Shown: positions 4,036 through 63,707 of the stretch, piece by piece
Layout: each line of letters opens with the position of its first letter
How positions within the stretch are numbered: the first letter of the stretch is position 1
Sequence record: MZ560701
Reading direction: 5' to 3' (one strand)
Length of the DNA: 64,000 nt
Source of the DNA: Escherichia phage vB_EcoM_TU01
Translations under genes and position numbers: made by a program
The notes under the pieces: generated by a model
What the model was told of the DNA's origin: nothing
The model's input: only the letters and a program-made list of their open reading frames with translations
Database searches by the model: none

Positions 4036-4250
4036 TGGCTTCTACTATTACTGGGTTATTGGACTTTCAAGAAAAGGTCAACAAAATTTGTAGTGAATAC
4101 TTAAAGTATCTTGAAGAAGACNTTGAAGATTGTAAGGAAGAAGGCGAAGAAGACTATGCTGACCAGCGTCGTCGCCAAATCGAAGAGATGAGGCATTTCG
4201 CCGATATGGTATCTAAAGAATCTTGGGCTTTAACTCCATTTTATCAATAA
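4035..4250 (+). CDS. hypothetical acidic protein
   Basis: TAATG overlap start. Confidence 0.4.
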   Translation: MASTITGLLDFQEKVNKICSEYLKYLEEDXEDCKEEGEEDYADQRRRQIEEMRHFADMVSKESWALTPFYQ

Positions 4251-4254
4251 AGTA

Positions 4255-4306
4255 GTTTACTTCTCCTCTAGTTGTGTTACTATAGACCTTGTCAACTAGA
4301 GGAGAA
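4255..4306 (+). promoter_or_regulatory. early promoter within stem-loop (PeSL-like) for regB
   Basis: GTTTAC 4255-4260, TACTAT 4278-4283, inverted repeat CCTCTAGTTG (4265-4274) / CAACTAGAGG (4293-4302). Confidence 0.6.
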
Positions 4307-4311
4307 ATCAA

Positions 4312-4770
4312 ATGACTATCAATTCAGACGTTTTTATCCGCCGTAATAAACTCCGTCGAATCTTTGAAACGGAGTTCCGCAAAATAAATGCCGGTATAAA
4401 AGATGCTGCAAAGTCTCTTGGACTACCAGGCTTTCATATCAAGTATTCTCAACATCTCTTAGATCGTGCCATCCAGAGAGAAATAGATGAGAACTACGTT
4501 TTTGAATTATTTCGTAAAGTAAAAAATCATGTTAAAGAAGTTGCAGAATTTTTATCAATGCCGGCACGTCCAGATGTTGATGAAGATTTTGTCGAAGGCG
4601 TCGAATATCGCCCAGGCCGTTTAGAAATAACTGACGGAAATCTTTGGTTAGGACTTACAGTTTGTCGCGAAAATCCAGCATTCAAAATGAAGACTCTTCA
4701 ATGCAGAATGGCTATTATTAACAGTAAACGACTACCAGGAAAAGCTTCTAAAGCAGTGATTAAAATCTAG
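4312..4770 (+). CDS. regB: RegB site-specific endoribonuclease
   Basis: MTINSDVFIRRNKLRR...HIKYSQHLLDRAIQREIDE...RLPGKASKAVIKI closely matches T4 RegB. Confidence 0.93.
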   Translation: MTINSDVFIRRNKLRRIFETEFRKINAGIKDAAKSLGLPGFHIKYSQHLLDRAIQREIDENYVFELFRKVKNHVKEVAEFLSMPARPDVDEDFVEGVEYRPGRLEITDGNLWLGLTVCRENPAFKMKTLQCRMAIINSKRLPGKASKAVIKI

Positions 4771-4778
4771 AGGTAAAC

Positions 4779-5321
4779 ATGAGAAAAGCACTACTCGCTG
4801 GTCTATTTGCTCTTTCGTTATCAGCACATAGCTCCGAGCATACTTTTAGTAATGTCCAACTCGATAACTTGAATTATGCTTATCAGTTTGGGGAACAGTT
4901 TTCTAAGGACGGAAAATTTAAAACGCATGAAAATATGCATAAGAAAGGACTTGGATACATAATGGCCGCAATACTATGGCAGGAATCATCTGCCGGTATT
5001 AATCTTAAAGATAAGAAAGGTCACCATGCGTATGGAATGTTCCAAAATTATCTACCAACAATGAGGGCAAGAATTAACCAGCTTGGTTATAATATGACTG
5101 ATGCCCAAATTAAGAAAATGCTATCTAAGCGGTCTAATTCAGCCAGATGGGCTTATATCGAATTTTCTTATTGGTTAAATATACATAATGGGGATATAAG
5201 AAAAGCTATATCCTCATATAACGCGGGATGGAAGACAAGTGCTGGAAGTAAATATGCTTCTGAAGTCCTAGAAAAGGCCAATTACCTTAAATCAAATAAA
5301 CTACTGGAAATAAAAGAATGA
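4779..5321 (+). CDS. secreted protein, possible lytic transglycosylase-like fold (LWQESSAG...GMFQ)
   Basis: N-terminal signal peptide MRKALLAGLFALSLSAHS; E-S and G-hMFQ motifs resemble SLT domains. Confidence 0.55.
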   Translation: MRKALLAGLFALSLSAHSSEHTFSNVQLDNLNYAYQFGEQFSKDGKFKTHENMHKKGLGYIMAAILWQESSAGINLKDKKGHHAYGMFQNYLPTMRARINQLGYNMTDAQIKKMLSKRSNSARWAYIEFSYWLNIHNGDIRKAISSYNAGWKTSAGSKYASEVLEKANYLKSNKLLEIKE

Positions 5322-5665
5322 CCAAAATGTTGGCTTTAATAGTTGGCTTGGTTTCATTTAACGCTCTTGCTAATACTACATATACTGATATAACGGAGTA
5401 TACAAACAGAACGGCGTCTGATTATTGTGGTCAAAGTCAAGAGTGTAAAGTAGATTTTTCACAAAAATTGTTATATGCGTATAAAGACGGAGAAAAAGAT
5501 GGGGCGTCTAGTAGGTTCAAGGCGTCTACCTTAATTAAAAGATACTATAAAAAATGGCAAATATTAGAATGCTCGGTGGCGGAACCTAAAGATAAGGCAG
5601 CATGCAATTCTATGGTGGACCGTCTAGTTGACTCTTATAATAGAGGACTTGCAGCAAGTGATTAA
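5318..5665 (+). CDS. secreted hypothetical protein (signal peptide, Cys-containing)
   Basis: MTKMLALIVGLVSFNALA leader; ATGA overlap. Confidence 0.5.
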   Translation: MTKMLALIVGLVSFNALANTTYTDITEYTNRTASDYCGQSQECKVDFSQKLLYAYKDGEKDGASSRFKASTLIKRYYKKWQILECSVAEPKDKAACNSMVDRLVDSYNRGLAASD

Positions 5666-6125
5666 AAACTATATCAAGGGCGATATTGTCGCCCTGTTTT
5701 CTAAAGGTAATAATATCGCTCATGGGTGTAATTGTTTTCATACAATGGGCGCCGGTGTGGCAGGACAATTAGCAAAGGCTTATCCAAAAATTCTAGAAGC
5801 TGATAAACTTCAAACCGAATTCGGAGACGAGTCTAAACTCGGGACTTATTCGGTTTATGAAAAATATTTTAAGACCCATAAAGCTTATTGCTTTAATCTT
5901 TATACGCAGTTTGAGCCGGGACCTAATTTTGAGTACTCTGCTTTAATGAATTGTATAATAGAATTAAATGAATTCGGAAAGAATAAGATAACAAAGCCTG
6001 TAATTTATATGCCAAGAATTGGTGCAGGTATTGGTGGTGGAAACTGGGATGTCATCGAAGAGATTTTAGATACGTATTCCACTAAACTAGAAATTGTGAT
6101 TGTTGATTGGGAACCATTATTATGA
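5658..6125 (+). CDS. macro-domain protein (ADP-ribose binding/processing fold), probable GTG start
   Basis: IKNYIKGDIVALFSKGNNIAHGCNCFHTMGAGVAGQL ... IGAGIGGGNW; no in-frame ATG upstream of the domain; GAGGA 10 nt before GTG 5658. Confidence 0.65.
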   Translation: MIKNYIKGDIVALFSKGNNIAHGCNCFHTMGAGVAGQLAKAYPKILEADKLQTEFGDESKLGTYSVYEKYFKTHKAYCFNLYTQFEPGPNFEYSALMNCIIELNEFGKNKITKPVIYMPRIGAGIGGGNWDVIEEILDTYSTKLEIVIVDWEPLL

Positions 6126-6334
6126 ATATACATTATCCACATCCATATGACCCAAAGAATAAGGCAGTAATTATTCGTCAATGGGAACGAATTTGTCGTA
6201 CCAAATGCCCAATTAATAGTCCACATGATGTAGATAAAGACTACATCGGAACATTCGTTGAATATACCTTTATTGATAAGAAAGGCCGTAAACAACATGT
6301 AGAAGAATATTGCTTAAAGGTGACATGGCTATGA
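6122..6334 (+). CDS. hypothetical protein
   Basis: ATGA overlap with macro-domain stop. Confidence 0.4.
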   Translation: MNIHYPHPYDPKNKAVIIRQWERICRTKCPINSPHDVDKDYIGTFVEYTFIDKKGRKQHVEEYCLKVTWL

Positions 6335-6537
6335 GTCAAACAAAAATTCTTACAGGTGCTAAATGCGAAAAATGCGAATGGCCTGTAGTTTTTGCTTTAT
6401 GCAATGACGAAATGGCTTGTGATTTTGATTATTGGTGTTACTGTTCGAACAAAGGTTGTAGCAATCATAAAGGTGAAGGGTTTTACTCAGGATTTTACCC
6501 TTACCCAGATTTCGTTAAAGAAGGTGAACCTAAATGA
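6331..6537 (+). CDS. Cys-rich small protein (possible Zn-binding)
   Basis: CEKCEW...CNDEMACDFDYWCYCSNKGC. Confidence 0.4.
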   Translation: MSQTKILTGAKCEKCEWPVVFALCNDEMACDFDYWCYCSNKGCSNHKGEGFYSGFYPYPDFVKEGEPK

Positions 6538-6716
6538 AATTAACTAAAGAAGAGAAAGCTAAACTGTTTGAACTTATTCATGACCTATTGGATGAGCAAG
6601 CAGCCACCAATGCGTACGATGAATATGCTCCTTTAACAGATGAAGAATATCAAGCATTGATGGAATCATTTGACAGGAAAGAACAAGAACTCATTGACTA
6701 CGTGAATTCACTATAA
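6534..6716 (+). CDS. hypothetical acidic protein
   Basis: ATGA overlap. Confidence 0.4.
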   Translation: MKLTKEEKAKLFELIHDLLDEQAATNAYDEYAPLTDEEYQALMESFDRKEQELIDYVNSL

Positions 6717-6725
6717 GGGACTCTT

Positions 6726-7307
6726 ATGGCTAGTTTAATTTTTACATATGCCGCTATGAACGCTGGTAAGTCTGCTTCATTACTTACTGCCGCACATAAC
6801 TATAAAGAACGTGGCATGGGTGTATTAGTTCTTAAACCGGCTATTGATACTCGCGATTCAAAAGGTGAAATAGTCTCTCGTATTGGTATTCGTCAGGACG
6901 CCAATATAATTACAAAAGACATGGATATCTTTGAATTCTATAAATGGGCTGCAGCACAAAAGGATATTCATTGTGTATTTGTTGACGAAGCTCAGTTCTT
7001 AACTACTGAAAAGGTGTATCAACTTAGTCGTATTGTTGACGTATACAATGTGCCGGTAATGGCATATGGACTACGAACAGATTTTAAAGGTAATCTATTT
7101 GAAGGTTCTCAAGCATTAATGGCTATTGCCGATAAGCTTGTTGAACTTAAAGGTGTCTGTCATTGTGGTAAAAAGGCCACAATGGTAGCTAGAGTCACGG
7201 AAGACGGACTTCCAATTACAGATGGCAGTCAAATTGAAATTGGTGATACCGATAGATATGTGTCATTATGCCGGAAGCATTGGAATGATTTGACAGGGTT
7301 GTTATAA
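6726..7307 (+). CDS. tk: thymidine kinase
   Basis: P-loop AMNAGKSASLL, FVDEAQF, C-terminal CHCGKKATMVARV...LCRKHW zinc ribbon; matches T4 Tk. Confidence 0.93.
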   Translation: MASLIFTYAAMNAGKSASLLTAAHNYKERGMGVLVLKPAIDTRDSKGEIVSRIGIRQDANIITKDMDIFEFYKWAAAQKDIHCVFVDEAQFLTTEKVYQLSRIVDVYNVPVMAYGLRTDFKGNLFEGSQALMAIADKLVELKGVCHCGKKATMVARVTEDGLPITDGSQIEIGDTDRYVSLCRKHWNDLTGLL

Positions 7308-7334
7308 ATACTAATATCTAACCAAGAGGTATAT

Positions 7335-7547
7335 ATGCAGCAATTAAACGAAAGACAACTTCGTAATCTTACTGTAACCCAATTGGATGAAATCCGAAGA
7401 GAATTAGGACATTCTATTTCTCATTTAAACGAGGATATCCGTCAAACTGGTTCTAAAGCTGATTATACACGCAAGCGCAAGCTGGAAAAATACCTCACAG
7501 ATGTTAAGGCCGTCCAAAGGCGAAAAATAAATACTGGCCAAAATTAA
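7335..7547 (+). CDS. hypothetical protein
   Basis: AGAGG RBS; ORF track. Confidence 0.45.
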
Positions 7548-7559
7548 CAGGAGGCCTAT

Positions 7560-7862
7560 ATGGCCTTAAGAGCGATAGCTGTCATGGCGATGCTGGGGTT
7601 TTTTGCAGCAACAACTCCTAACGTTGGTACTGCGTACACCGACCCATATTTTGATAACTTTATGGAATCAGGGATTAAAAACGTATATACTTTGTTTGAA
7701 ATTCAAAATGTCGAGAATTCTGAAAAATTCTATAAGTATATGGCAAAGCATTACAAAAATAGCCCCTGTGACGATGCATTTGAATGTCATGAACAAGGCA
7801 TAAAAACTGCCAGACAATTTGCCGAGTTCATGAAAATAAAATTAGAGCCTACATCTATCTAA
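7560..7862 (+). CDS. hypothetical protein with N-terminal hydrophobic leader
   Basis: MALRAIAVMAMLGFFAATTP; GGAGG RBS. Confidence 0.45.
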   Translation: MALRAIAVMAMLGFFAATTPNVGTAYTDPYFDNFMESGIKNVYTLFEIQNVENSEKFYKYMAKHYKNSPCDDAFECHEQGIKTARQFAEFMKIKLEPTSI

Positions 7863-7868
7863 TTTACT

Positions 7869-7898
7869 AGCCCCTTCCTTACGGTTGGGGCTTTTTTG
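7869..7898 (+). terminator. rho-independent terminator-like hairpin plus T-run
   Basis: AGCCCC...GGGGCT followed by TTTTTT. Confidence 0.5.
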
Positions 7899-7907
7899 CA
7901 TTTAGCA

Positions 7908-7958
7908 GTTTACTTCTCCTCAGGTTGTGTTATAGTAGTCCTTACTTACTAGAGGAGA
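7908..7958 (+). promoter_or_regulatory. early promoter/stem-loop (PeSL-like)
   Basis: GTTTAC 7908-7913; CTCCTCAGG...ACTAGAGGAG inverted repeat around TG-n-TATAGT. Confidence 0.5.
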
Positions 7959-7963
7959 ACGTT

Positions 7964-8143
7964 ATGTCACGTAAAGAAAAAATTTCTAAGTTAATGTTTT
8001 TGATTGAAGAGTACGCTAATGCGGTATCTGATTGGGAAAATGCTCATGGTTGCGAAGATGGAGACATCGACATTAACAGAGCTATGAAAAAGATGGCCGA
8101 TGCCCACACCGAATTGCAAATGTATGTTAACGAGATTATGTGA
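7964..8143 (+). CDS. hypothetical protein
   Basis: GAGGAG RBS. Confidence 0.45.
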   Translation: MSRKEKISKLMFLIEEYANAVSDWENAHGCEDGDIDINRAMKKMADAHTELQMYVNEIM

Positions 8144-8150
8144 GGATATT

Positions 8151-8315
8151 ATGCTTTACGATTATACTGGAAAATCTGAAGACGGTGTACTTGAACTTTT
8201 ACCTGAAAGCGCTGAAGATGATATGGTAGTGATGTTTTGTGTTGGTTGTCAATCAATGCGTGATGAAATTTTTAAACGTGAACCAAGAAACTGTTGGCAC
8301 AGGAGCATGAGATGA
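8151..8315 (+). CDS. hypothetical protein (MLYDYTG... family)
   Basis: Paralogue of 8407-8622 (MLYD...EDGV..LE.LPE). Confidence 0.4.
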   Translation: MLYDYTGKSEDGVLELLPESAEDDMVVMFCVGCQSMRDEIFKREPRNCWHRSMR

Positions 8316-8407
8316 TTTATTATCTTGAACCTTGGGCTTGGTTAACAATGGCTGTAGGACCTGTTTTAATTGGTTTATTCTTTTCATGGTTAGCGAGGAA
8401 ACTGTAA
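8312..8407 (+). CDS. 31-aa hydrophobic micropeptide (candidate)
   Basis: MIYYLEPWAWLTMAVGPVLIGLFFSWLARKL; ATGA and TAATG overlaps with flanking genes. Confidence 0.3.
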   Translation: MIYYLEPWAWLTMAVGPVLIGLFFSWLARKL

Positions 8408-8622
8408 TGTTATATGACCCAAGCGGNNNTTNTGAAGATGGTGTGATTGTTCTGGAGCCTGAGCATCCAGTTGGTGATGTATATCGCNCNGTTGAAGTAT
8501 GCGAATGTAATTTCGTTGAAGGTAATACTGGCGGAATTTCCATTGAGCAAGATGATGATGTTATTTACCTGGATGCAAGCCAAGTAGAAGCTCTTTATAG
8601 CATTTTAAAACACAATCGGTAG
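8407..8622 (+). CDS. hypothetical protein (MLYDPS... family)
   Basis: Paralogue of 8151-8315. Confidence 0.4.
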   Translation: MLYDPSXXXEDGVIVLEPEHPVGDVYRXVEVCECNFVEGNTGGISIEQDDDVIYLDASQVEALYSILKHNR

Positions 8623-8660
8623 TTTACGTCTTGGTAGGACTATGATATAGTAATCCTACC
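8622..8660 (+). promoter_or_regulatory. early promoter/stem-loop (PeSL-like)
   Basis: GTTTAC 8622-8627; stem GGTAGGA/TCCTACC flanking TATGATATAGT. Confidence 0.5.
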
Positions 8661-8679
8661 AAAACAAATGGAGAACAAA

Positions 8680-8790
8680 ATGAAACTTTTGCTTATCGCT
8701 TATGTTGTAGTACAATACAATTATCCGATGTTTACTTATAACATGGTAAACGGCATAGTGAATCTTATTGAAACGAGTATGGTAAAATGA
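8680..8790 (+). CDS. small hypothetical ORF (36 aa)
   Basis: GGAGAA RBS. Confidence 0.3.
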   Translation: MKLLLIAYVVVQYNYPMFTYNMVNGIVNLIETSMVK

Positions 8791-8966
8791 CCCGTGAACA
8801 AGCTAATAAATTGATGGACCTTATCCATGACTTACGTGAAGCCGATTCAGATTTGAATGATGTAGCTTATCATGCGGTAAATGATAACGGAGACTTTTAT
8901 GAAAATCAGGTTGATGCTTGCCAGAATGCTTTGGTGAATTTTGTTGAAACTTTAATTGGTGAATAA
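8787..8966 (+). CDS. small hypothetical acidic protein (59 aa)
   Basis: ATGA overlap. Confidence 0.35.
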   Translation: MTREQANKLMDLIHDLREADSDLNDVAYHAVNDNGDFYENQVDACQNALVNFVETLIGE

Positions 8967-8967
8967 T

Positions 8968-9498
8968 ATGAAAACTGTAATTGAAACAACCGAGTTGTTT
9001 GGTGATTTATGTATCGAAAAACGTGGNNATGTGTATGTTCTGACACAAGAAGATGATGCTGCTACTATTCTTCCTATGGAACTGGACAAGATTTTGAAAC
9101 TCAATCCACCCGGCCATGCATCTGTAATTAACATTAATGAAGACCTTCAAGTTCGTTTTTATCACGGACTTTATAGTGGGGTTAATATCGAAACTGAAGA
9201 CGAATGTTTTTCTATTAATAATTGGAAAACATTCGTCGCTAAAGTGAAAGAATTCATGGAATCTGAAACAGCCAAAAAGGCCAAACTTCAATGGGCTAAA
9301 TGCCGTAATGCTTTTATTACAAATCAGGACCGCCCTGACTATACAACAGTCCTAGGCGTTAATCCTTCGTATGAAGATGGTGATGTCGTAGTTATTCGTC
9401 AAATTGATGACCTTCGTCAACATATCATTACATTAGACAAAGATGAAGCAGTTGCTCTTAAAGCTTATCTTGATTCTATTATCCCGACTTTGAAATAA
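8968..9498 (+). CDS. hypothetical protein
   Basis: ORF track, start refined to ATG 8968. Confidence 0.5.
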   Translation: MKTVIETTELFGDLCIEKRXXVYVLTQEDDAATILPMELDKILKLNPPGHASVININEDLQVRFYHGLYSGVNIETEDECFSINNWKTFVAKVKEFMESETAKKAKLQWAKCRNAFITNQDRPDYTTVLGVNPSYEDGDVVVIRQIDDLRQHIITLDKDEAVALKAYLDSIIPTLK

Positions 9499-9507
9499 GG
9501 AATTATT

Positions 9508-9981
9508 ATGATTATCAATGAAAACTCTTGGCACTTTAAAATTTATGCCGCGTTCAATAGTACATGGAATCGTCCGAAAACGTTGTGTGCTTATTTTTGG
9601 AAAACGTTAATCCCNGTATTGGCTGTTTCAATTATTGGATTTGCGATTTTAGCAGGTGCCGTAATCATTGGCCAGGAAATTTTAACTANATTCTTTGTTT
9701 TTAGCAGTCTATGGACATTAGTTCCGGCCTCAATTGGTGTAGGCATTTTAANNGTAGCAGTCATGGCTCTTATTGCTGTCGGGTTGGTAATTGGCCCGTC
9801 TTGGTTGTTAGACAAATATAACGACAGAAAATATTATAAAGAAATTGAGTTCATTGCACAAAACCAAGAACGAATTAAAAATGGACTTGAGCCTATTGAA
9901 CGTAAGAAATCATTAATAGGTGAATACCTTAAAGCTCGTAAAGAAAAAGTCTGTCCTACTCTTGAATATAAGGCTAAATGA
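9508..9981 (+). CDS. membrane protein (multiple TM segments)
   Basis: hydrophobic stretches LAVSIIGFAILAGAVIIG, VMALIAVGLVIGPSWLL. Confidence 0.5.
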   Translation: MIINENSWHFKIYAAFNSTWNRPKTLCAYFWKTLIXVLAVSIIGFAILAGAVIIGQEILTXFFVFSSLWTLVPASIGVGILXVAVMALIAVGLVIGPSWLLDKYNDRKYYKEIEFIAQNQERIKNGLEPIERKKSLIGEYLKARKEKVCPTLEYKAK

Positions 9982-10967
9982 TGAAAACAATTATGAAGGC
10001 TTACTTTGGTAGTCACCTTTATGGAACGTCTACTCCTGAATCTGACGTCGATTTTAAAGAAATTTATGTCCCTCATGCTCGTGATATTTTGACCGGTAAC
10101 GTTAAAGAACATATGAGCAAGAACACGAATAACACATCTTCTAAGAACACAAAAGACGACGTGGACCATGAGTTGTATAGTCTCAAATATTTCTTTAAAC
10201 TAGCTGCAGATGGTGAAACCGTCGCATTAGATATGCTTCACACTCCACAAAGTCTAGTAGTTAAATCTGATTTGCCTGANGTNTGGAAGTATATTCAAGA
10301 CAACAGGTCTCGTTTCTATACTACTAACATGAAATCTTATTTAGGGTATGTCCGTAAGCAAGCTTCTAAATACGGTGTCAAGGGTTCTCGACTGGCTGTT
10401 CTTCGACAAGCCCTTAAACGTTCTAATGAATGGGGACAATACTTTGATAATGGTGCAGTAATTCGTTTATCACATATGAAGAATGTTCTGCCTGTAGGTG
10501 AATTTGCTTCGTGGGTTGAAACCGAAAACGAGAAAACAGGTAAGCAAACATTCTATAATCTGTTAGACCGTAAATTCCAAGACACATTAACCAATAAAGA
10601 GTTCAATGCCATCCTTGTTAAACTAGAAGAGAACTATGGCGAACGTGCTCGTAAGGCAGAAGCTAACGAAGGTATTGACTGGAAAGCATTGAGTCATGCA
10701 TGTCGTGGTGGACTTCAATTATTGGAAATTTACAAAACAGGCGACCTGGTTTACCCACTTCAGGATGCTCCATTTATTCTCGATGTTAAGCTTGGTAAAC
10801 ATACGTTTAAAACTGTACAAGAATTCCTAGAAGATATCGTTGACCAAGTTGAACATGCGTCAGAACAAGCTGCCAAGAACGGTATGCAACAAAAAGTAGA
10901 TATGAGTTTCTGGGATGACTTCCTTGAACAAGTCTATCTCGAAAATCATAATTCTTACTATAAATAA
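9978..10967 (+). CDS. Pol-beta-superfamily nucleotidyltransferase-fold protein, unknown substrate
   Basis: N-terminal YFGSHLYGTSTPESDVDF fits the GS...D.D nucleotidyltransferase motif. Confidence 0.55.
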   Translation: MMKTIMKAYFGSHLYGTSTPESDVDFKEIYVPHARDILTGNVKEHMSKNTNNTSSKNTKDDVDHELYSLKYFFKLAADGETVALDMLHTPQSLVVKSDLPXXWKYIQDNRSRFYTTNMKSYLGYVRKQASKYGVKGSRLAVLRQALKRSNEWGQYFDNGAVIRLSHMKNVLPVGEFASWVETENEKTGKQTFYNLLDRKFQDTLTNKEFNAILVKLEENYGERARKAEANEGIDWKALSHACRGGLQLLEIYKTGDLVYPLQDAPFILDVKLGKHTFKTVQEFLEDIVDQVEHASEQAAKNGMQQKVDMSFWDDFLEQVYLENHNSYYK

Positions 10968-23693: not shown

Positions 23694-23933
23694 ATGGCCC
23701 AAGAATTAGANNNNNNNNNNNNNNNNNNNNNNNNNNNNNNNNNNNNNNNNNNNNNNNNNNNNNNNNNNNNNTATGACATTTTAACAGATGCTATTACTGT
23801 TAGTTGTGGTGGAAANNNNNNNNNNNNNNNNNNNACTGAAAACAAATACCCAATCTATAAAGGCATCTTTGATATGGGTGTTGATATTAGNNNNNNNNNN
23901 NNNNNNNNNNNNNNNNNNNNNNNNNNNAAATAA
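23694..23933 (+). CDS. hypothetical protein, mostly N-masked
   Basis: ORF spans three N runs; only fragments readable. Confidence 0.25.
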   Translation: MAQELXXXXXXXXXXXXXXXXXXXXXYDILTDAITVSCGGXXXXXXXTENKYPIYKGIFDMGVDIXXXXXXXXXXXXXK

Positions 23934-27939: not shown

Positions 27940-29624
27940 AATCATTTAAATTAAATCGTGTTCGTTATCAAAATATCATGTCGGTAGGCGGGAATCCTAT
28001 TGATATCCAATTAGATAAAGTCCAAAAGACATTAATCACTGGTAAAAATGGCGGTGGTAAATCTACGATGTTAGAAGCCATTACTTTCGGACTTTTCGGT
28101 AAACCATTTCGTGATGTTAAGAAAGGGCAAATCATTAATAGCACGAACAAGAAAGAGCTCTTAGTTGAGCTTTGGATGGAATTCGATGGTAAAAAATACT
28201 TCATTAAACGTGGCCAAAAGCCCAATATTTTCGAAATCTCCGTTGACGGTGTTCGTCTTGATGAATCTGCCAGCAGTCGTGACTTCCAAGAAGAATTTGA
28301 ACGTAGCATCGGAATGTCATACGCGTCTTTTAAACAAATCGTTGTGCTTGGGACGGCAGGGTATACCCCTTTCATGGCTCTTAGCACCCCTGCTCGTAGA
28401 AAACTTGTCGAAGACCTTTTAGAAGTCGGCACACTCGCTGAAATGGATAAAATCAATAAGTCTCAAGTTCGAGAACTTAATTCCCAGGGACAAGTTCTCG
28501 ATGCCAAGAAAGATGGTGTTATCCAACAAATTAAGATTTATAACGAGAATATCGAACGTCAAAAGAAATTATCTGGTGATAATGTAGCGCGTCTACAGAA
28601 TATGTATGACGACCTAGCCAAAGAAGCTCGTTCATTAAAAGCAGAAATTGAAGAAGCTAACGAGCGTCTACTTAATATCGTTCTTGACGAAGACCCTACT
28701 GAGGCATTCAACAAGATCGGACAAGAAGCACTCTTGATTAAATCTAAAATTGACTCATATAACAAAGTTATTAAGATGTATCATGATGGTGGTACATGTC
28801 CTACTTGTGCATCACAGTTGCACCAGGGTGATCCTATTGTCTCTAAGATTACCAATAAGCTTCACGAATGTAATCACTCATTCGAGCAACTTACATGTCA
28901 CAGAGATAATCTGAGTGTCCTAGTGGACGAATATAGAGCTAATGTTAAGACTAAACAGGACCTTGCATCTGATATTCGTACCAAGAAACAAGCAATGATT
29001 GCCACTATTGATAAAGCTAAGAAAGTTAAAGCTGCAATAGAACAAGCCTCGGCGGAATTTATCGACCATGCCGATGAGATAGCTTTGCTTCAAAAAGAAC
29101 TTGATAAAATCATTAAAACAAAATCAGATATCGTTCTTGAAAAATACCATCGTGGTATTATCACAGATATGTTAAAAGATTCTGGTATTAAAGGTGCTAT
29201 CATTAAAAAATATGTGCCTCTGTTCAACAAGCAGATTAACCATTATCTTAAAATCATGGAAGCTGATTACGTGTTTTCTATTGACGAAGAATTCAATGAA
29301 TCTATAAAATCACGTGGTCGTGAAGATTTTAGTTATGCTTCATTTAGTCAAGGTGAAAAAGCACGTATCGATATCGCATTGTTGTTTACATGGCGAGATA
29401 TTGCTGAAAAGGTCTCTGGCGTTAAAATCAACACTCTGATTCTTGATGAGGTTTTTGACGGCGCTGTTGATTCTGAGGCTGTTAAGGCTATAGATACCAT
29501 TCTTGGAAGTTTACAAAACACTAATGTGTTCATTATCTCTCATCGAGACCATGACCCTCAACGGTATGGACAGCATCTTCAGATGAGCAAAGTTGGACGA
29601 TTTACGGTAATGACTGTTTCATAA
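27936..29624 (+). CDS. 46: recombination ATPase gp46 (Rad50/SbcC-like)
   Basis: Walker A GKNGGGKSTMLEAITFGLFG, central coiled coil with CPTC zinc hook, C-terminal LILDEVFDG. Confidence 0.95.
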   Translation: MKSFKLNRVRYQNIMSVGGNPIDIQLDKVQKTLITGKNGGGKSTMLEAITFGLFGKPFRDVKKGQIINSTNKKELLVELWMEFDGKKYFIKRGQKPNIFEISVDGVRLDESASSRDFQEEFERSIGMSYASFKQIVVLGTAGYTPFMALSTPARRKLVEDLLEVGTLAEMDKINKSQVRELNSQGQVLDAKKDGVIQQIKIYNENIERQKKLSGDNVARLQNMYDDLAKEARSLKAEIEEANERLLNIVLDEDPTEAFNKIGQEALLIKSKIDSYNKVIKMYHDGGTCPTCASQLHQGDPIVSKITNKLHECNHSFEQLTCHRDNLSVLVDEYRANVKTKQDLASDIRTKKQAMIATIDKAKKVKAAIEQASAEFIDHADEIALLQKELDKIIKTKSDIVLEKYHRGIITDMLKDSGIKGAIIKKYVPLFNKQINHYLKIMEADYVFSIDEEFNESIKSRGREDFSYASFSQGEKARIDIALLFTWRDIAEKVSGVKINTLILDEVFDGAVDSEAVKAIDTILGSLQNTNVFIISHRDHDPQRYGQHLQMSKVGRFTVMTVS

Positions 29625-35832: not shown

Positions 35833-36468
35833 ATGAAAACTACTCCTATTACTATCGCTATTGACGCAATCATAAAACAAGCTTCTTCTTTGGCCGCTAT
35901 GGCCAAAGTAATTAGTCAAAACCCTGCTCGTTATAATGCTATTCTAGAAACTCTTCGACGCCCAGGACTTAGNAATTANGAAAGCCGAGTAATTATTACA
36001 GGTGTTGGTAAGAATGCTAATATTGCAACTAAAGCTTCTGAGACATTTGCTTCACTCGGTATCCCGAGTATGTACTTGAACACCGGGCATTATTCTCACG
36101 GTGATGCAGGATTCATTGCGCCTAATGATGTGTTGATTCATATTAGTCGTTCTGGTAAAACTGAAGAAATGATAGGCGTTGCTAAGCATCTTAAAATGAT
36201 TCGTCCGAACGTCAAACAGATTCTGTTGCATTGTAACCCAGACATTCCACAAGAAAATGAAGCCCTTTTTGATTACTCTTTCTGTACAGGCATCGCAGTA
36301 GAGGTTGATGAGAATTCTCTGGCTCCGACTATGTCCACTACATTGTTGTTAGCGCTTATCGATACTTTTGCTATCAACCTTTCGTCTGAGCGTGGATTTA
36401 CCTCTAATGACTTCCTTAAGTTCCACCCTGGTGGTGCACTAGGTGCCATGTTACGAGGCGAACAATGA
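35833..36468 (+). CDS. SIS-domain sugar-phosphate isomerase (KpsF/GutQ/KdsD-like, no CBS domains)
   Basis: VIITGVGKNANIATKASETFASLGIPSMYLNTGHYSHGDAGFIAPNDVLIHISRSGKTEEM is a canonical SIS domain. Confidence 0.8.
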   Translation: MKTTPITIAIDAIIKQASSLAAMAKVISQNPARYNAILETLRRPGLXNXESRVIITGVGKNANIATKASETFASLGIPSMYLNTGHYSHGDAGFIAPNDVLIHISRSGKTEEMIGVAKHLKMIRPNVKQILLHCNPDIPQENEALFDYSFCTGIAVEVDENSLAPTMSTTLLLALIDTFAINLSSERGFTSNDFLKFHPGGALGAMLRGEQ

Positions 36469-36608: not shown

Positions 36609-36649
36609 AATAGTGTACAATACTCCTACTTACCAATGAGGACNNCAAC

Positions 36650-38335
36650 ATGAAAAAAGCTGTTATTCTTGGTGCTGGACTGGCAACTCGTTTGTATCCA
36701 ATAACGCATCATATTCCTAAGGTGCTTGTTAACTATAAACAAGACACTATTCTGAGCAATTTGTATACAATTTATTCTGACCTTGGCGCAGATGAAATTA
36801 TTGTAGTAGTTCATTCAAAATTTGCTGAAACTGTTCGAGCTTATTGTGAGCAAGAAGGGTTCAATGTGACTATTCGTACAGTTGATGAAGCGTATGGTTC
36901 TGCTTATGCTCTTGCTAAATTACACAAAGATTTAGACGGCCATAATGTAATTGTTAACTGGTGTGATATTATTCCTGATTTTGGTTCATGGTCTTGGAAT
37001 GTTAACGCAATCTATGTTAAGGGTGATGAATGTCGATATAATTTCGACGGTGAAAATATCACTAACGTAGGTTCAACAGGTGGTAATGTTGTAGGAATTT
37101 ATCAGTTCAAAGACTGGGAATTCTATATGGGTTCTACTGATGAGGAAATTCATGAATACTGCAAAGGACGTGATTTCGTAGAATTCCTTTACGGCAGCGC
37201 ATTCAATAAATCAGAGCTTATGAATCTAATTGATTTAGGTGATATGCCTAAACTTGAAAAAGCTCATGAAGTTCGTGAACTTAATCGTAGTTTTAATGCA
37301 GTTGAAATTGGTGAAGAAACTGTAACTAAATTCGCATTAACCGAACAGGGTCGAGCTCTTCAGAAAGATGAGATTTCATGGTATCTTAAAGTGAAATCAG
37401 ATTCAGTTCCTCAGTTAGTTTCTGTTAATGAAAATAACTTTGAAATGGAACGCATTAAAGGTAAGCCGGCATTTGAATATATTAAATCCAAATCGAGTCT
37501 TGCTCGTCCACAAATTGTTGATGCAATTTTAGATGCACTGAAATTCAGCACAGACACTTATTTTGTAAGTCCTGAAACTGTTCGTCGTGATTTCACTAAA
37601 GAATTCTATACGAAAGTTATTGATCGTTGTGAAAGTATTCAACCATTGATTGATTCATTTGGTAAAATCACACATGTGAACTACACTAAGATTGGACGTC
37701 TGAAGCCAATGCTGAAACAAGCTTTAGAACACCTTATTCGTTATCATAACCGTTCTCAGGGACAGTACTCTGTTATTCATGGCGACCCGAACTTCAGTAA
37801 TACTATGATTACTGATAACGGCGAAGTCAAGTTTATCGACCCTCGTGGATATTTTGGTGAAACCAAGATTTACGGGCCAAAATTGTACGATGAAGCTAAA
37901 GTGCTTTATGCTGTTTCAGGTTATGATGAATTCAACGCTAATCCGACCTGGGGACAGTTTACTATTGACGAAACAACTTGTAATGTGACTATTAACATCA
38001 ATCCATTAATTTACAAATATGGAAAGCTGAGTTCGTTTAACGAGTATCATCATTTGGCCGTAGCAATTATCTGGATTGCATTAGGTGGTTATTTCAAGAA
38101 TAATCCACTTAAAGCGGTAGCCGCATATTATAAAGGTATGGAACTTCTGACTAAGCAATTACGTAACATGGGCCGTGTACTTCAAGACGGCTCTATTAGT
38201 TATGACGTAGCAGAACCTGTAACGGCTACTCTGATTACAAAAAATCCTGGTAAATGGGTACTAACTGATAAAGAAACTGGTGTTTCCTATCGTCCAATCG
38301 GTGGCGATATCACTCATCAATGGGAACGAATCTAA
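36650..38335 (+). CDS. bifunctional sugar-1-phosphate nucleotidyltransferase (N-term, LicC/RmlA-like) + APH/choline-kinase-fold kinase (C-term)
   Basis: N-term MKKAVILGAGLATRLYPIT...KVLV (G-x-G-T-R-L-x-P); C-term SVIHGDPNFSNTMITDNGEVKFIDPRGYFG (H-G-D-x4-N and I-D-x-R). Confidence 0.8.
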   Translation: MKKAVILGAGLATRLYPITHHIPKVLVNYKQDTILSNLYTIYSDLGADEIIVVVHSKFAETVRAYCEQEGFNVTIRTVDEAYGSAYALAKLHKDLDGHNVIVNWCDIIPDFGSWSWNVNAIYVKGDECRYNFDGENITNVGSTGGNVVGIYQFKDWEFYMGSTDEEIHEYCKGRDFVEFLYGSAFNKSELMNLIDLGDMPKLEKAHEVRELNRSFNAVEIGEETVTKFALTEQGRALQKDEISWYLKVKSDSVPQLVSVNENNFEMERIKGKPAFEYIKSKSSLARPQIVDAILDALKFSTDTYFVSPETVRRDFTKEFYTKVIDRCESIQPLIDSFGKITHVNYTKIGRLKPMLKQALEHLIRYHNRSQGQYSVIHGDPNFSNTMITDNGEVKFIDPRGYFGETKIYGPKLYDEAKVLYAVSGYDEFNANPTWGQFTIDETTCNVTININPLIYKYGKLSSFNEYHHLAVAIIWIALGGYFKNNPLKAVAAYYKGMELLTKQLRNMGRVLQDGSISYDVAEPVTATLITKNPGKWVLTDKETGVSYRPIGGDITHQWERI

Positions 38336-38721
38336 TGCACCGTGTAGAAAACATGCTTAATCTTTGTTTTGATGTCGATGATTGTATAACAGAGTGGAAT
38401 AACAATCGTGATTACGTGAACTTCAAGCCGGACGTCGAAATGGTGAATGCCATTAATGCCCTGTATGATGCAGGGCACACAATAACGCTTTACACTGCTC
38501 GCGGTATGAAGTCAGTAGGTCCTGGTCGTATAGCAATTGACATTCTCCCAAGTCTTATTCAGAACTTGGCAAACATTGGCTTGAAGTACCATAATTTGCT
38601 AACACATAAACCAGTATATGATTGGATTATCGACGACAAAGCTATGCGTCCTGACGAATTCAAAGCTCTTATGAATAAAGGCGAATTCGAAACATTTAAA
38701 TCATATAAACCGAATCTATAA
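38335..38721 (+). CDS. small HAD-superfamily phosphatase (KdsC-like size)
   Basis: LCFDVDDCIT (motif I DxDx[TV]), ITLYTARG (motif II), YDWIIDDK (motif IV); start 38335 or 38353. Confidence 0.7.
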   Translation: MHRVENMLNLCFDVDDCITEWNNNRDYVNFKPDVEMVNAINALYDAGHTITLYTARGMKSVGPGRIAIDILPSLIQNLANIGLKYHNLLTHKPVYDWIIDDKAMRPDEFKALMNKGEFETFKSYKPNL

Positions 38722-38775: not shown

Positions 38776-39936
38776 ATGAATACTTTTAAAATCGGAACGA
38801 ATTTTGATTTAGCTCTTCTTGATAAAATCGTAGAGCTCAATAAAACTTATCCTAATAGCTTGATAAACGAAGTATATGGCTCTACAAGAGAAATGGCTTT
38901 TGTAGCAGCCAGACCTGATTTTAGGCTTCCTGACGTTGACAAAAAGATGTTAGAAGATTACGTTAAACGTTGTAACGAATTAGGTATTTGCTTTAACTAT
39001 ACACTCAACACGATAAATCCTGGTTCAAAAAGAGAACTAGTTGAGTGGAAGAAGAAAGCTATTCAGGACTATGTTCAGTATCTTTGGTCAATAGGCGTAT
39101 GGCGTATTACTATCGCTAACCCTGTTGTTATGGAAATTGTTCGTGAAGTCAATAAAGACATTGAGATTGAAGTTTCAACAATTTTACATGTCGATGCTGT
39201 AACTCAAATCAAATACTTACATGACCAGTATAATATCAAAAAGGTCTGCTGTGGAATTCATAAGAACCGTTCAGTTTCTTTCCTGAAGCGTGCAGCAGAG
39301 TTTTGCAATAAGAACAATATAATATTTGAAGTTCTTGTAAATGAGTTCTGTTCTAATGCTGGTAAAGGGTATACAACACATTGTAGCTATCGTGACTCTT
39401 GCTATATTTTCCATAGTACTGATGTTACAGCTGATGATGCTAAATCCTTAAATGGATATCCTATGCAGCACTGTATTAAAGCTCGTGATACAGACCCATT
39501 TAACTGGTTGAGAACTCGTTTTGTTCGTCCACAAGATTTGAAACTTTATAATGATATTGGTATCACTCAATTTAAAGTTTCGGGACGTACAGGTAGCACC
39601 GACTACATTTTGAAAGTTCTTGAAGCTTATGCTTCTGAAAAGTTTGAAGGTAATTTGTTGGAATTGTGGAAGCCTTTAGAGACCATTTTCACTCTTGAAA
39701 ATGAGACCGAGTTTTCACATACGGTAAATATTGAAACCTCTTTGTTAGACGGCTTTTTAGAAAAAAGGTGGTTCAGACATCCGGATTTCGATTGTGCTAA
39801 TGAAATCTGCGGGACGACGTGTACATATTGTGAAAGATATTATAAACGTCAGTTATCTAAAAATGGGTTATCAGAAAATTCTATATCTATTATTGATATA
39901 ACTAACTCTGACGACGCTTTGAGGTACCCAGAATGA
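38776..39936 (+). CDS. Cys-rich enzyme of unknown function (possible U32-like TIM barrel; C-terminal CGTTCTYC Cx3Cx2C cluster)
   Basis: 386 aa; FEVLVNEFCSNAGKGYTTHCSYRDSC and CANEICGTTCTYC; family assignment tentative. Confidence 0.5.
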   Translation: MNTFKIGTNFDLALLDKIVELNKTYPNSLINEVYGSTREMAFVAARPDFRLPDVDKKMLEDYVKRCNELGICFNYTLNTINPGSKRELVEWKKKAIQDYVQYLWSIGVWRITIANPVVMEIVREVNKDIEIEVSTILHVDAVTQIKYLHDQYNIKKVCCGIHKNRSVSFLKRAAEFCNKNNIIFEVLVNEFCSNAGKGYTTHCSYRDSCYIFHSTDVTADDAKSLNGYPMQHCIKARDTDPFNWLRTRFVRPQDLKLYNDIGITQFKVSGRTGSTDYILKVLEAYASEKFEGNLLELWKPLETIFTLENETEFSHTVNIETSLLDGFLEKRWFRHPDFDCANEICGTTCTYCERYYKRQLSKNGLSENSISIIDITNSDDALRYPE

Positions 39937-40215: not shown

Positions 40216-40932
40216 ATGGGAAAACATAACACAATGAAATATATTAAAGCCGCAGATTTTCAATCCGCATTTAAAGCTGTCAATCGTGAAATTTTAGAAA
40301 ACCCAGAATTCGTAACTGATTCTCGTATTGGACGTTGTAATGAAATTGGGTCTATGACAGTAGTTGTTGACACTCCATCATCATTCAAAATGACCGACCC
40401 ACGTATTAACCGCATCTCTTATGAATATGCCGAAGATTTCTGGAAATTTATGATTTCTGGCGGNACTGANGCAGAAGAAGCATTTAAGGCATATCCTAAT
40501 GTCGCTAAATTTATTTCTAAACCAAAATCAGACGCTTTGCCTGCGAACTTCAACACTTTCTATGGTCCTCGCATTGCGGCCCAATTACCAGCTCTTCTAA
40601 AAGAACTTAAAGAGAAGCCTAACTCTCGAAGAGTTGTGTTCCAAATTCTTGAAAGTTCTGATCAGGCTTTGCTTGATTCGGACGAAACGCTTGAATATCC
40701 ATGTACTGACTCAGTGACTTATTATATTCGTGATGGTAAGCTTTATACCCACTGTCATATGCGTTCCCAGAACTGTGCTGTTGTTATGCAGTTGGATTTT
40801 TATCTCCAAGGAAAATTACTTCATTATATCGCTAAAGAATGCGGTGTAGAAGTTGGTGATTATACTCATACCATGGTAAGTGCCCATGTGTTTGAACGTG
40901 ATTTTGATTATGTTAAAGGATTCCTTGACTAA
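40216..40932 (+). CDS. 42: dCMP hydroxymethylase (thymidylate-synthase fold)
   Basis: 238 aa; CTDSVTYYIRDGKLYTHCHMRSQNCAVVMQLDF parallels T4 gp42 catalytic-Cys region; between 43 and uvsX. Confidence 0.85.
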   Translation: MGKHNTMKYIKAADFQSAFKAVNREILENPEFVTDSRIGRCNEIGSMTVVVDTPSSFKMTDPRINRISYEYAEDFWKFMISGXTXAEEAFKAYPNVAKFISKPKSDALPANFNTFYGPRIAAQLPALLKELKEKPNSRRVVFQILESSDQALLDSDETLEYPCTDSVTYYIRDGKLYTHCHMRSQNCAVVMQLDFYLQGKLLHYIAKECGVEVGDYTHTMVSAHVFERDFDYVKGFLD

Positions 40933-41831
40933 TGGCTATTTTCCGCGTACCTATCTTGAGTATGCGGTCTTATGAAACCGGACAGTATGCTATCCTTAAG
41001 GATGGCAACTTCCAACTTCATTTGCACCGTGCTAATCCGGGTGATGTGATTACATATCCACGTAATGCATCTGATATTAAAGAATGTGAACGTCTTTTCC
41101 CAGAATTTAAGTTTGTTCCATTATGGTATAAAGATAACGCGTATAACACTCGTAAATATTTCTGGTCTGAAAATGAATTTGTGGTTGATTCATTAATTGC
41201 TTATTATGATTGTGATTTTCTAATCACAGATATCACTGGATATGACGGAGCTTTTGATGTAGAATTCAATTTCAATATCACTGCAGACCCTAATAAACCA
41301 CGTTTTTATATTGACGAATTCTTAAAAACCGACATGTTGTCGGTTAATCGTTCACTTCAAACTACTGTGTTGAATGAACGTCAAAAAGAAGTGCTGGTTA
41401 ACGCTGGTGCAGATGGTAATAAGATTATCGTAACCCAGAAAGTTATACGTCCTTCCATCATGCAGCGTCTTGTAGGTGATTTGGCTCCTATTCATCTAGA
41501 TGGTATTTTTCATCCATTTCGAATTAGTGACCCGTGCTATCGTTTTGAACAAGTGGTTGAATGTGCAATTCAATTAGGTCAACCGCTTTATGTAACCGAT
41601 CCAAATAATAGTTTCGATAGAAATAAGTATCCTGAAGAAGCGCTGATTCGAATTTTTAAACCAACTAAAACTGAGTACTATCAAATTCTTAAAGGACGGC
41701 CGAAGATTCAATATTTCGAAAATCCTGAAGAAGTATTCCATCCAGGTCTTGGCGAGTTCATCTACTTTAATGCTTTAATTTCTTCACCGTATAATATACC
41801 TAAATACGAAGATGTCGTAATCGAGGAATAA
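40932..41831 (+). CDS. hypothetical protein at the T4 beta-glucosyltransferase locus (no resemblance to T4 beta-gt)
   Basis: 299 aa; TAATG overlap with gene 42; no motif I could assign. Confidence 0.5.
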   Translation: MAIFRVPILSMRSYETGQYAILKDGNFQLHLHRANPGDVITYPRNASDIKECERLFPEFKFVPLWYKDNAYNTRKYFWSENEFVVDSLIAYYDCDFLITDITGYDGAFDVEFNFNITADPNKPRFYIDEFLKTDMLSVNRSLQTTVLNERQKEVLVNAGADGNKIIVTQKVIRPSIMQRLVGDLAPIHLDGIFHPFRISDPCYRFEQVVECAIQLGQPLYVTDPNNSFDRNKYPEEALIRIFKPTKTEYYQILKGRPKIQYFENPEEVFHPGLGEFIYFNALISSPYNIPKYEDVVIEE

Positions 41832-41832
41832 A

Positions 41833-42381
41833 ATGGCTAAAATTATTTTAGTAGATGGCCCGGATAATGCTGGTAAAACAACTTTCATTAATGATATAAT
41901 GGAAATTAGTGAAAGATATGTAAAGATTGATTTCCCTAAACGAACAGTTGATGGACGTTTCGATGTTAAGTCTCGAAATGAAGTTGGCTGTTTCGAAACG
42001 ATGTTGAATTATTTAGACCCTACTAAGATTTATCTGTTAGACCGTGGATATATTAGTAACTGGGTTTATGGACGTATTCGACAAGATGCGGACTCGGTTC
42101 TTGACGTTTATGAACAGGATTATGTTCGTCTTTGCCAAAACCATGATGTGTTCACAATTATTTTAACACGTAACGAAATGACTGAAAGTTTTGAAGACGA
42201 CCTTATTACTTTGTCTTCATTCGGTTTTAATACAGTCATTTCACATTTTGAAGAGTTTGCAATTCATAACAAAATCCAAACGTATCAATTACTTAATCAT
42301 GATGGTGCTAACAAAGTTATAGGATTTAATGCAAGCGAACGTAATTATTTGATTACAGAAATTATCAAATGGGCTCGTTAA
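41833..42381 (+). CDS. P-loop nucleoside/nucleotide-kinase-like protein
   Basis: MAKIILVDGPDNAGKTTFI (Walker A), LLDRGYISNWVYG (DR motif typical of dNK/dNMP kinases). Confidence 0.55.
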   Translation: MAKIILVDGPDNAGKTTFINDIMEISERYVKIDFPKRTVDGRFDVKSRNEVGCFETMLNYLDPTKIYLLDRGYISNWVYGRIRQDADSVLDVYEQDYVRLCQNHDVFTIILTRNEMTESFEDDLITLSSFGFNTVISHFEEFAIHNKIQTYQLLNHDGANKVIGFNASERNYLITEIIKWAR

Positions 42382-42402
42382 GAGCCTGTTTAAAGTTTTT
42401 AA

Positions 42403-62606: not shown

Positions 62607-63707
62607 ATGAAAGTTATGTTTATCCCATCTCGNGCAGTCCCATTTAATCCTGACCGTGTACAAGGTGGNCTTGAAGCAGTACATTTAAATGTGTTGAAAT
62701 ATCTTGTGTCCATCGGTGCTGATATTGATTATATCGGCTTTGATAATGACACGTTTGGTGACTGGAAAGTTAAACACCATCCTGTTGGTCATCTGACTAA
62801 ATTCAGTCTAGGTATGAGTTATACTATGGCTCGTAAGATTGTTGAACTAGCNGGCATCCATGAATACGATTTTGTTGTTACTATGGAACCGACTAAACTA
62901 ACCGTTCAGGCAATTAAAGACGCAGGTCTCTCTAAAGTTCATAAGAATTTTATGGCAACACCATTTGAACCGGTATCTCGTGGCATTGTTCAAATTTGGG
63001 ACCANACTATTCAAATTCATAAGAATGGTGGTAAGAGTTATGCTCCTACTAAAGCCTTCCGTGAATTTGAACGCAAATATTGTTATATGACTTCAGGTCT
63101 GACTGACAAAATTGATTATGATTATTGGCGAGCAAATCCGTTGTTTGAAGCCGAAGATTATCCGGTTATTTGTTTGANTGAGAAACCNGAAGTTCTTCCG
63201 GCNACTGATNTGATTATTAGTGCACAACGTTATGACACTAAAATGCGTCGTACTGATGTTGCTCTTGAAGCGATTAAAGCACTAGGCGAAAATGGTGTAG
63301 GATACTGTCCTAGTAAATGGGCACCACCAGCTAAATATCCTGTTATTATTGATGCTCCACACAGTGAAATCATGGAACGTCTTAAAACAGCTAAAGCACT
63401 TATTAATACGTGTCCTGACACAGGTACNGTAGAGAATAGTTCTATTGAAGCCATCTCTAAAGGTGTCCCTGTAATCCAGTTAGTTTTTAAGGATTATCCT
63501 CATGCGACATTCGAATACGACCCAGATACTGTGCGTGTAGAAATTGATTCCTCTACTCCTAAGAAAGAAGTAGTTGCGCTTTACACAAAAGCTGTATTAG
63601 AATTCACTGACACATACGAAGCTCGAGTTAAACGNGCTGAAGCAGTATGGAAGAAGTATAATCGAGATGCAGTTGTTGCGATGTGGGATAAAATCTTCAC
63701 AGCGTAA
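62607..63707 (+). CDS. GT-B-fold glycosyltransferase (GT4-like), candidate DNA sugar transferase
   Basis: N-terminal MKVMFIPS..PFNPDRVQGGLEAVHLNVLKYL and C-terminal ENSSIEAISKGVPVI resemble GT4 motifs; N-containing. Confidence 0.6.
   Translation: MKVMFIPSXAVPFNPDRVQGXLEAVHLNVLKYLVSIGADIDYIGFDNDTFGDWKVKHHPVGHLTKFSLGMSYTMARKIVELXGIHEYDFVVTMEPTKLTVQAIKDAGLSKVHKNFMATPFEPVSRGIVQIWDXTIQIHKNGGKSYAPTKAFREFERKYCYMTSGLTDKIDYDYWRANPLFEAEDYPVICLXEKXEVLPXTDXIISAQRYDTKMRRTDVALEAIKALGENGVGYCPSKWAPPAKYPVIIDAPHSEIMERLKTAKALINTCPDTGXVENSSIEAISKGVPVIQLVFKDYPHATFEYDPDTVRVEIDSSTPKKEVVALYTKAVLEFTDTYEARVKXAEAVWKKYNRDAVVAMWDKIFTA

Follow-up and report, generated by a model that had tools for sequence, protein, structure and literature searches.

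A phage gene that joins a nucleotidyltransferase to a kinase in one chain raises the question of which compound its product activates and to what end. Such a gene lies in the 64,000-nucleotide stretch of Escherichia phage vB_EcoM_TU01 (record MZ560701) analysed here, to which we refer as the window. The initial annotation had likened it to the salvage pairs LicC/LicA and AmgK/MurU, and had proposed that the phage activates a free sugar, possibly a pentose, or a small alcohol rather than drawing on a host NDP-sugar pool. We conclude, at a probability of roughly 85%, that the gene encodes an AfhE-type bifunctional enzyme of the phage arabinosyl-5-hydroxycytosine DNA-modification pathway, acting by the steps set out below. 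The ORF, both folds, the conservation of catalytic residues, the near-identity to RB69 ORF53_52c and the gene context were computed here; substrates and step order come from the literature, in which the biochemistry of phage HY126 is available second-hand, as relayed by Lee et al. 2026 from He et al. 2026.

One intact reading frame

Direct reading of positions 36650-38335 (+) revealed an ATG-to-TAA ORF of 561 codons with no ambiguous base inside; from base composition, the chance of a stop-free run of this length is roughly 1e-17 at 37% GC. The spacer between the GAGGA ribosome-binding site and the start codon (Table 1) contains NN at 36644-36645. The protein is identical in sequence to QYC95655.1 of phage vB_EcoM_TU01, and tblastn found matches in 373 phage records, full length in 363 of them. 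The two ORFs displayed for this region in RB69 could be taken to mean that the fusion is an assembly artefact; given the 363 full-length records and the resequencing of RB69 by Thomas et al., we rejected this explanation.

In the window as a whole there are 322 N bases, including runs at 23711-23771, 23816-23834 and 23891-23927 and many scattered singles. Isolated Ns lead to X residues in the DNA polymerase, UvsX, the ThyA homologue and the ORF003c homologue. This pattern suggests a consensus or masked assembly rather than a finished genome.

Table 1. Positions of the fusion gene, its parts and its neighbours in the window
Feature	Position	Strand	Basis
SIS-domain arabinose-5-phosphate isomerase, RB69 gp55 homologue	35833..36468	+	Pfam SIS 7.8e-11, RB69 annotation
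Ribosome-binding site GAGGA	36638..36642	+	7 nt 5' of the fusion-gene ATG, direct reading
Fusion gene: 561-aa bifunctional nucleotidyltransferase-kinase, AfhE-type (probable), RB69 ORF53_52c orthologue	36650..38335	+	ORF, alignment
N-terminal domain, aa 1-205: sugar-1-phosphate nucleotidyltransferase (putative UDP-arabinose pyrophosphorylase)	36650..37264	+	
C-terminal domain, aa 206-507: protein-kinase-like (APH/ChoK fold), putative sugar-phosphate kinase	37265..38170	+	
C-terminal tail, aa 508-561	38171..38332	+	pLDDT 80-89, short strands
Small HAD-type phosphatase, 128 aa, RB69 gp51/AfhF-like	38335..38721	+	NCBIfam TIGR01689 2.5e-13, RB69 annotation
Peptidase-U32-family protein, RB69 gp50	38776..39936	+	Pfam Peptidase_U32 7.3e-11
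Thymidylate-synthase homologue = 5-hydroxy-dCMP synthase, RB69 gp48 homologue	40216..40932	+	Pfam Thymidylat_synt 1.8e-15
Putative DNA arabinosyltransferase 1, RB69 gp46:47	40932..41831	+	One intact 299-aa ORF
Thymidylate-kinase-like nucleotide kinase, RB69 gp45	41833..42381	+	RB69 annotation, weak dTMP kinase match
Terminator-like hairpin, 10 pairs	42367..42391	+	Terminator scan; overlaps the gp45-like stop, just before uvsX
Second putative DNA arabinosyltransferase, RB69 ORF003c homologue	62607..63707	+	96% identity to RB69p003, 366 aa

Folds and catalytic residues of the two domains

The Pfam search placed an NTP_transferase match at aa 3-99 of the fusion protein (E 8.5e-10), while the kinase half gave sub-threshold matches alone (Fructosamin_kin, EcKL and RIO1, around aa 344-409). 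In a set of 47 diverse homologues, NTP_transferase was detected in 37 and APH in 10, the best APH match at 6.1e-10. A profile of the kinase domain by itself had RIO2 as its best PDB match, at E 0.02 and over the catalytic loop only. Judged by its sequence alone, the kinase domain is very divergent. An AlphaFold2 model from the alignment of the 47 homologues (mean pLDDT 94.3, pTM 0.91) consisted of an alpha/beta domain (aa 1-205), a bilobal kinase-like domain (aa 206-507) and a 54-residue tail; in structure, the kinase domain came closest to glucosamine kinase, LicA and APH. The initial annotation had tied its reading to an APH/ChoK fold in the C-terminal region, and domain mapping by HMM and structure prediction found this fold there, confirming that a LicC/MurU-like transferase and an APH/ChoK-fold kinase share one polypeptide. 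The tail is retained in T4-like (Straboviridae-type) homologues, and the most distant homologues end right after the kinase domain.

The two motifs that had drawn attention to the gene fared differently. The C-terminal H-G-D-x4-N motif is exact (HGDPNFSN, H377-N384, at 37778-37801, with Asp379 and Asn384), and IDPR (I396-R399, at 37835-37846) provides Asp397. The N-terminal signature GAGLATRLYP (G8-P17, at 36671-36700) aligns with AAGLGTRLRP of LicC and is homologous to the G-x-G-T-R-L-x-P motif but does not match it literally. Across the 47 sequences, down to about 30% identity, residues G10, R14, K24, D106, D195, G197 and D198 of the transferase and K227, E241, D379, N384 and D397 of the kinase were invariant. 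The best profile match of the N-terminal domain was HddC (4.4e-14), the domain being about equally like cytidylyl-, guanylyl-, thymidylyl- and uridylyltransferases.

The fusion protein does combine a LicC-like transferase fold with a ChoK/APH kinase fold, and it could be read as a LicA/LicC-like kinase and cytidylyltransferase for choline or another small alcohol, serving surface decoration rather than DNA modification. However, neither the fusion protein nor any of the 47 homologues matched Pfam Choline_kinase, and the catalytic loop is followed by FIDPRGYFG, where choline kinases have an IDFEY-type motif. The neighbouring genes encode a sugar-phosphate isomerase, a ThyA-like 5hodCMP synthase and glycosyltransferases, a context of DNA modification and not of choline utilisation, and CDP-choline would be without obvious use to a phage. 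On the gene context and the missing choline-kinase signature we rejected a choline or small-alcohol substrate, to which we give virtually no chance. The likeness to LicC/LicA and AmgK/MurU thus held for the fold but not for family membership, the choline-kinase signature being absent and the MurU equivalog score reaching 24.8 bits against a cut-off of 250.

The same gene in phage RB69

Over 6.6 kb around the fusion gene, the window shares 97.8% identity with Escherichia phage RB69 and as much as 98.4% with other Mosigvirus genomes, and the gene is surrounded by T4-type replication genes (clamp, clamp loader, RegA, DNA polymerase, UvsX and gp41). The RB69 reference record shows two ORFs here that overlap by 20 nt, 053c (221 aa) and 052c (346 aa). 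DNA alignment to the window revealed a single extra C in that record, inside the overlap. When the frameshift was corrected, 557 of 561 residues were identical (99%), the four substitutions between the RB69 and window proteins being H92Y, Q233H, I454V and L460M. This identity, together with synteny, makes the gene an orthologue of RB69 ORF53_52c (gp52:53), which shares its length (561 aa), its neighbours and its place between gp43 and uvsX; the GenBank/RefSeq record of RB69 differs from the window in its two ORFs owing to a sequencing error. Resequencing of the RB69 region had led Thomas et al. 2018 to the same correction, one ORF of 561 residues (PMC6024577). By our alignment the extra base is position 29126 of NC_004928.1 and Thomas et al. 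give C-29116 (PMC6024577), a discrepancy that is probably due to a typo in the paper or to different counting.

ORF53_52c was expressed as a single band, was put forward as a candidate for UDP-arabinose synthesis and was linked to a Butyrivibrio multidomain protein with a SIS domain (Thomas et al. 2018, PMC6024577). [quoted passage not shown] 2026, PMC13326640). Like AfhE-type proteins, the window protein carries both domains in one chain of ~550-565 aa. The finding is thus correct but was anticipated in print in 2018 and 2026, for both the protein and its role, and adds no new biology.

With respect to the sugar, the same architecture might serve xylose, ribose or a deoxypentose phosphate, or accept CTP, GTP or dTTP in place of UTP. 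Specificity is not fixed by sequence or fold, and some of the phages with a homologue, Thanatos among them, are reported to contain other pentoses. Against this, RB69 DNA contains mono- and di-arabinosylated 5-hydroxycytosine (Lee et al. 2026, PMC13326640); arabinose on cytosine was established by MS in RB69 and in the related Mosigvirus NP, and in RB69 by NMR too, and the window protein is nearly identical to that of RB69. In addition, an arabinose-5-phosphate isomerase gene adjoins the fusion gene, and the HY126 enzyme is reported, in the account of PMC13326640, as a UDP-D-arabinose pyrophosphorylase. We therefore consider another sugar or nucleotide highly improbable, and the initial guess of a pentose proved right in that the role given in the literature involves arabinose.

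Full-length homologues are also found in cytosine-pentosylation clusters of Acinetobacter phage DLP3 (gp82) and Shewanella phage Thanatos (TH1_060), the identity to the window protein being ~57% for Acinetobacter DLP-type phages and 54% for Thanatos-1. DLP3 DNA differs in carrying up to three arabinoses. TH1_060 had no identifiable activity in vitro and UDP-xylose in Thanatos is made by a different protein, TH1_063. The TH1_060 result is discordant with the proposed role; the pentose substrate assayed was xylose-1-P, and the result does not bear directly on arabinose substrates.

Gene neighbourhood

The context that accompanies AfhE-type enzymes, namely an AfhF-like phosphatase, a 5hodCMP synthase, a DNA glycosyltransferase and often an Ara-5-P isomerase, is present around the fusion gene (Table 1). 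The SIS protein matched NCBIfam KpsF/GutQ (2e-32) and KdsD (5.9e-31), in both cases under the equivalog cut-off; its RB69 counterpart gp55 is assigned the conversion of ribulose-5-P to Ara-5-P (Lee et al. 2026, PMC13326640). On the other side, the ATG of the phosphatase gene shares one base with the fusion-gene TAA (TAATG), an overlap which suggests translational coupling of the two genes. The RefSeq name of this small HAD phosphatase in RB69, JS98 and Enterococcus phage 9183 is 'phosphoheptose isomerase', apparently a misnomer passed from record to record, the best family match being the TIGR01689 capsule-biosynthesis phosphatase. Further downstream, the ThyA homologue corresponds to RB69 gp48, which makes 5-hydroxy-dCMP, and arabinosyltransferase 1, intact in the window, is split into ORF047c and ORF046c in the RB69 record, again attributed to a sequencing error (Lee et al. 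2026, PMC13326640). The ORF003c homologue adjoins the topoisomerase gene, ~24 kb from the main cluster; it would consume the UDP-arabinose as an arabinosyltransferase, a role suggested both by Thomas et al. 2018 (PMC6024577) and by Lee et al. 2026 (PMC13326640). A promoter scan of the cluster gave 22 sites compared with 23.7 expected from shuffled sequence, that is, no excess.

The cluster also contains the U32 gene, whose RB69 counterpart gp50 is named by Lee et al. 2026 no more specifically than 'sugar or heterocycle reductase' (PMC13326640). Among the 221 phage records that carry a gp50-type protein its identity never falls below 80%, and the fusion gene in the same U32-bearing phages is only 42-54% identical. 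Dhakavirus JS98 is without it, and no Acinetobacter phage was among the matches listed. Prephenate-dependent hydroxylation of RNA pyrimidines at C5 needs the U32 proteins RlhA and TrhP (PMC6599085), and the oxygen atom that the phage 5hodCMP synthase introduces comes from O2. The U32 gene could therefore, by analogy, provide an O2-independent route to 5-hydroxycytosine, which we mention as a lead only.

Proposed route and order of steps

The proposed pathway would start from ribulose-5-P of the host pentose-phosphate pathway, which the upstream SIS isomerase, or host KdsD/GutQ, would convert to D-arabinose-5-P. The C-terminal kinase domain would then use ATP to phosphorylate Ara-5-P at C1, yielding arabinofuranose-1,5-bisphosphate, from which the translationally coupled HAD phosphatase would remove the 5-phosphate. 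The N-terminal domain would join the resulting Araf-1-P with UTP to form UDP-D-arabinofuranose, and phage glycosyltransferases would transfer the arabinose to 5-hydroxycytosine in replicated DNA. We infer that the pentose would be locked in its furanose ring by retaining the 5-phosphate up to the phosphorylation of C1. For HY126, the AfhE kinase is described as converting D-arabinose 5-phosphate to Ara-1,5-bisphosphate and AfhF as producing Ara-1-P, which is then uridylylated (PMC13326640 citing He et al. 2026). AfhF, the equivalent of RB69 gp51, is described as a Mg-dependent phosphatase (Lee et al. 2026, PMC13326640).

The same set of genes would fit equally well a different order, in which the HAD phosphatase first turns Ara-5-P into D-arabinose, the kinase forms Ara-1-P and the transferase NDP-arabinose. 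The kinase would then act at C1 like AmgK or fucokinase, and its structural neighbours, glucosamine kinase, LicA and APH, take non-phosphorylated substrates. Free D-arabinose, however, is mainly pyranose in solution, as general sugar chemistry has it, whereas the product is described as a furanose. The published record speaks on both sides: the free-sugar order is the earlier published proposal, and Table 1 of Lee et al. 2026 states that gp51 'dephosphorylates Araf5p to Ara' and that the C-terminal domain 'phosphorylates Ara to Araf1p', but the text of that paper gives Ara-5-P to Ara-1,5-P2 to Ara-1-P, citing HY126 AfhE/AfhF in vitro (PMC13326640). Moreover, the phosphatase matches in structure a bisphosphate phosphatase, the heptose-1,7-bisphosphate 7-phosphatase GmhB (Lee et al. 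2026, PMC13326640). We thus regard activation of the free sugar as improbable and favour the order through the bisphosphate. The initial view that a free sugar or a small alcohol is salvaged is accordingly not upheld, as the gene sits between an Ara-5-P isomerase gene and a coupled HAD phosphatase gene and the substrate given for HY126 AfhE, as relayed by Lee et al., is Ara-5-P. The accompanying claim that the NDP-sugar is phage-made and not taken from a host pool is borne out, NDP-arabinose not being known in Enterobacteriaceae (Lee et al. 2026, PMC13326640).

Comparison with other kinase and nucleotidyltransferase systems

By analogy, the closest counterpart of the fusion pathway in logic is the nucleotide-heptose route (ADP or GDP), which employs the isomerase GmhA, the anomeric kinase HldE or HddA with a sugar phosphate as substrate, the phosphatase GmhB and the transferase HldE/HldC or HddC. 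In HldE a PfkB/ribokinase-like kinase is paired with a domain of cytidylyltransferase fold, and HddA belongs to the GHMP kinases. The fusion protein has neither a PfkB kinase nor a cytidylyltransferase-fold domain of the HldE type; its kinase is protein-kinase-like, and its sugar would be a pentose and not a heptose. Because the heptose kinases have PfkB or GHMP folds, the kinase step would be analogous and not homologous to theirs.

A sugar-1-kinase and an NDP-sugar pyrophosphorylase also share one chain in the bifunctional L-fucokinase/GDP-fucose pyrophosphorylase (FKP) and in the Leishmania arabino/fucokinase-pyrophosphorylase, the latter of which activates D-arabinose. These enzymes, eukaryotic or from Bacteroides, use a GHMP-fold kinase for the salvage of free sugars and form GDP-sugars in pyranose form. 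They resemble the window fusion in their one-chain design and differ from it in the kinase fold and in free-sugar salvage. AmgK/MurU and LicA/LicC, in contrast to the fusion protein, are separate proteins with non-phosphorylated salvage substrates, whereas the homologue of the window protein is reported to act on a sugar 5-phosphate. Given that the reported kinase substrate is Ara-5-P, the route would be de novo, branching off the pentose-phosphate pathway, rather than salvage of the AmgK/MurU or LicA/LicC type.

Cluster variants in distant relatives

The fusion gene and a phosphatase gene recur beside a ThyA homologue in the distant phages JS98, PTm5 and Enterococcus phage 9183. In Dhakavirus JS98 (locus 4062-9175) the cluster comprises the fusion, the HAD phosphatase, a kinase, the ThyA homologue and a glycosyltransferase, and lacks both the SIS isomerase and the U32 gene; a 166-aa ORF without clear family lies 5' of the fusion gene. 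We infer that Ara-5-P could there be supplied by host KdsD/GutQ. In Enterococcus phage 9183 the small HAD gene is directly 5' of the fusion. In Tenacibaculum phage PTm5 (locus 6571-7275) the fusion is followed by a histidine phosphatase (His_Phos_1, 9.3e-23) and then by the ThyA homologue, and this histidine phosphatase looks like a non-orthologous replacement of the HAD phosphatase step.

Proteins of 890-955 aa were found in which HAD, SIS, nucleotidyltransferase and kinase domains form one chain. One of them, the 926-aa P0084 (locus 8001-10781), is encoded on a contig with genes for MutS7-HNH, RNA polymerase Rpb2 and RNA_pol_N, which looks giant-virus-like, and the 955-aa P0091 comes from a eukaryotic transcriptome. 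The four-domain chains tie the four activities together and cannot settle the order of the steps. They fit an association of the fusion protein with the phosphatase, and we entertain as a doubtful idea that the fusion protein and its translationally coupled HAD phosphatase form a physical channel, in which the bisphosphate would pass out to the phosphatase and Araf-1-P back to the transferase of the same chain; the tail (aa 508-561) could dock the phosphatase. The four-domain chains might also hint that this 'furanose-locking' activation module serves well outside the arabinosyl-cytosine phages.

Significance

The practical value of the finding lies in annotation. Public records label the fusion protein 'hypothetical', 'GlmU' or 'mannose-1-phosphate guanyltransferase' and its partner phosphatase 'phosphoheptose isomerase', and in the reference record of RB69 the fusion gene is still divided in two. 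For the phages themselves, the arabinose modification protects the DNA against many restriction enzymes (Lee et al. 2026, PMC13326640). Because NDP-arabinose is not a known product of E. coli, arabinosylating phages must bring their own supply of it, and the fusion enzyme would provide two of the four steps of that supply line.
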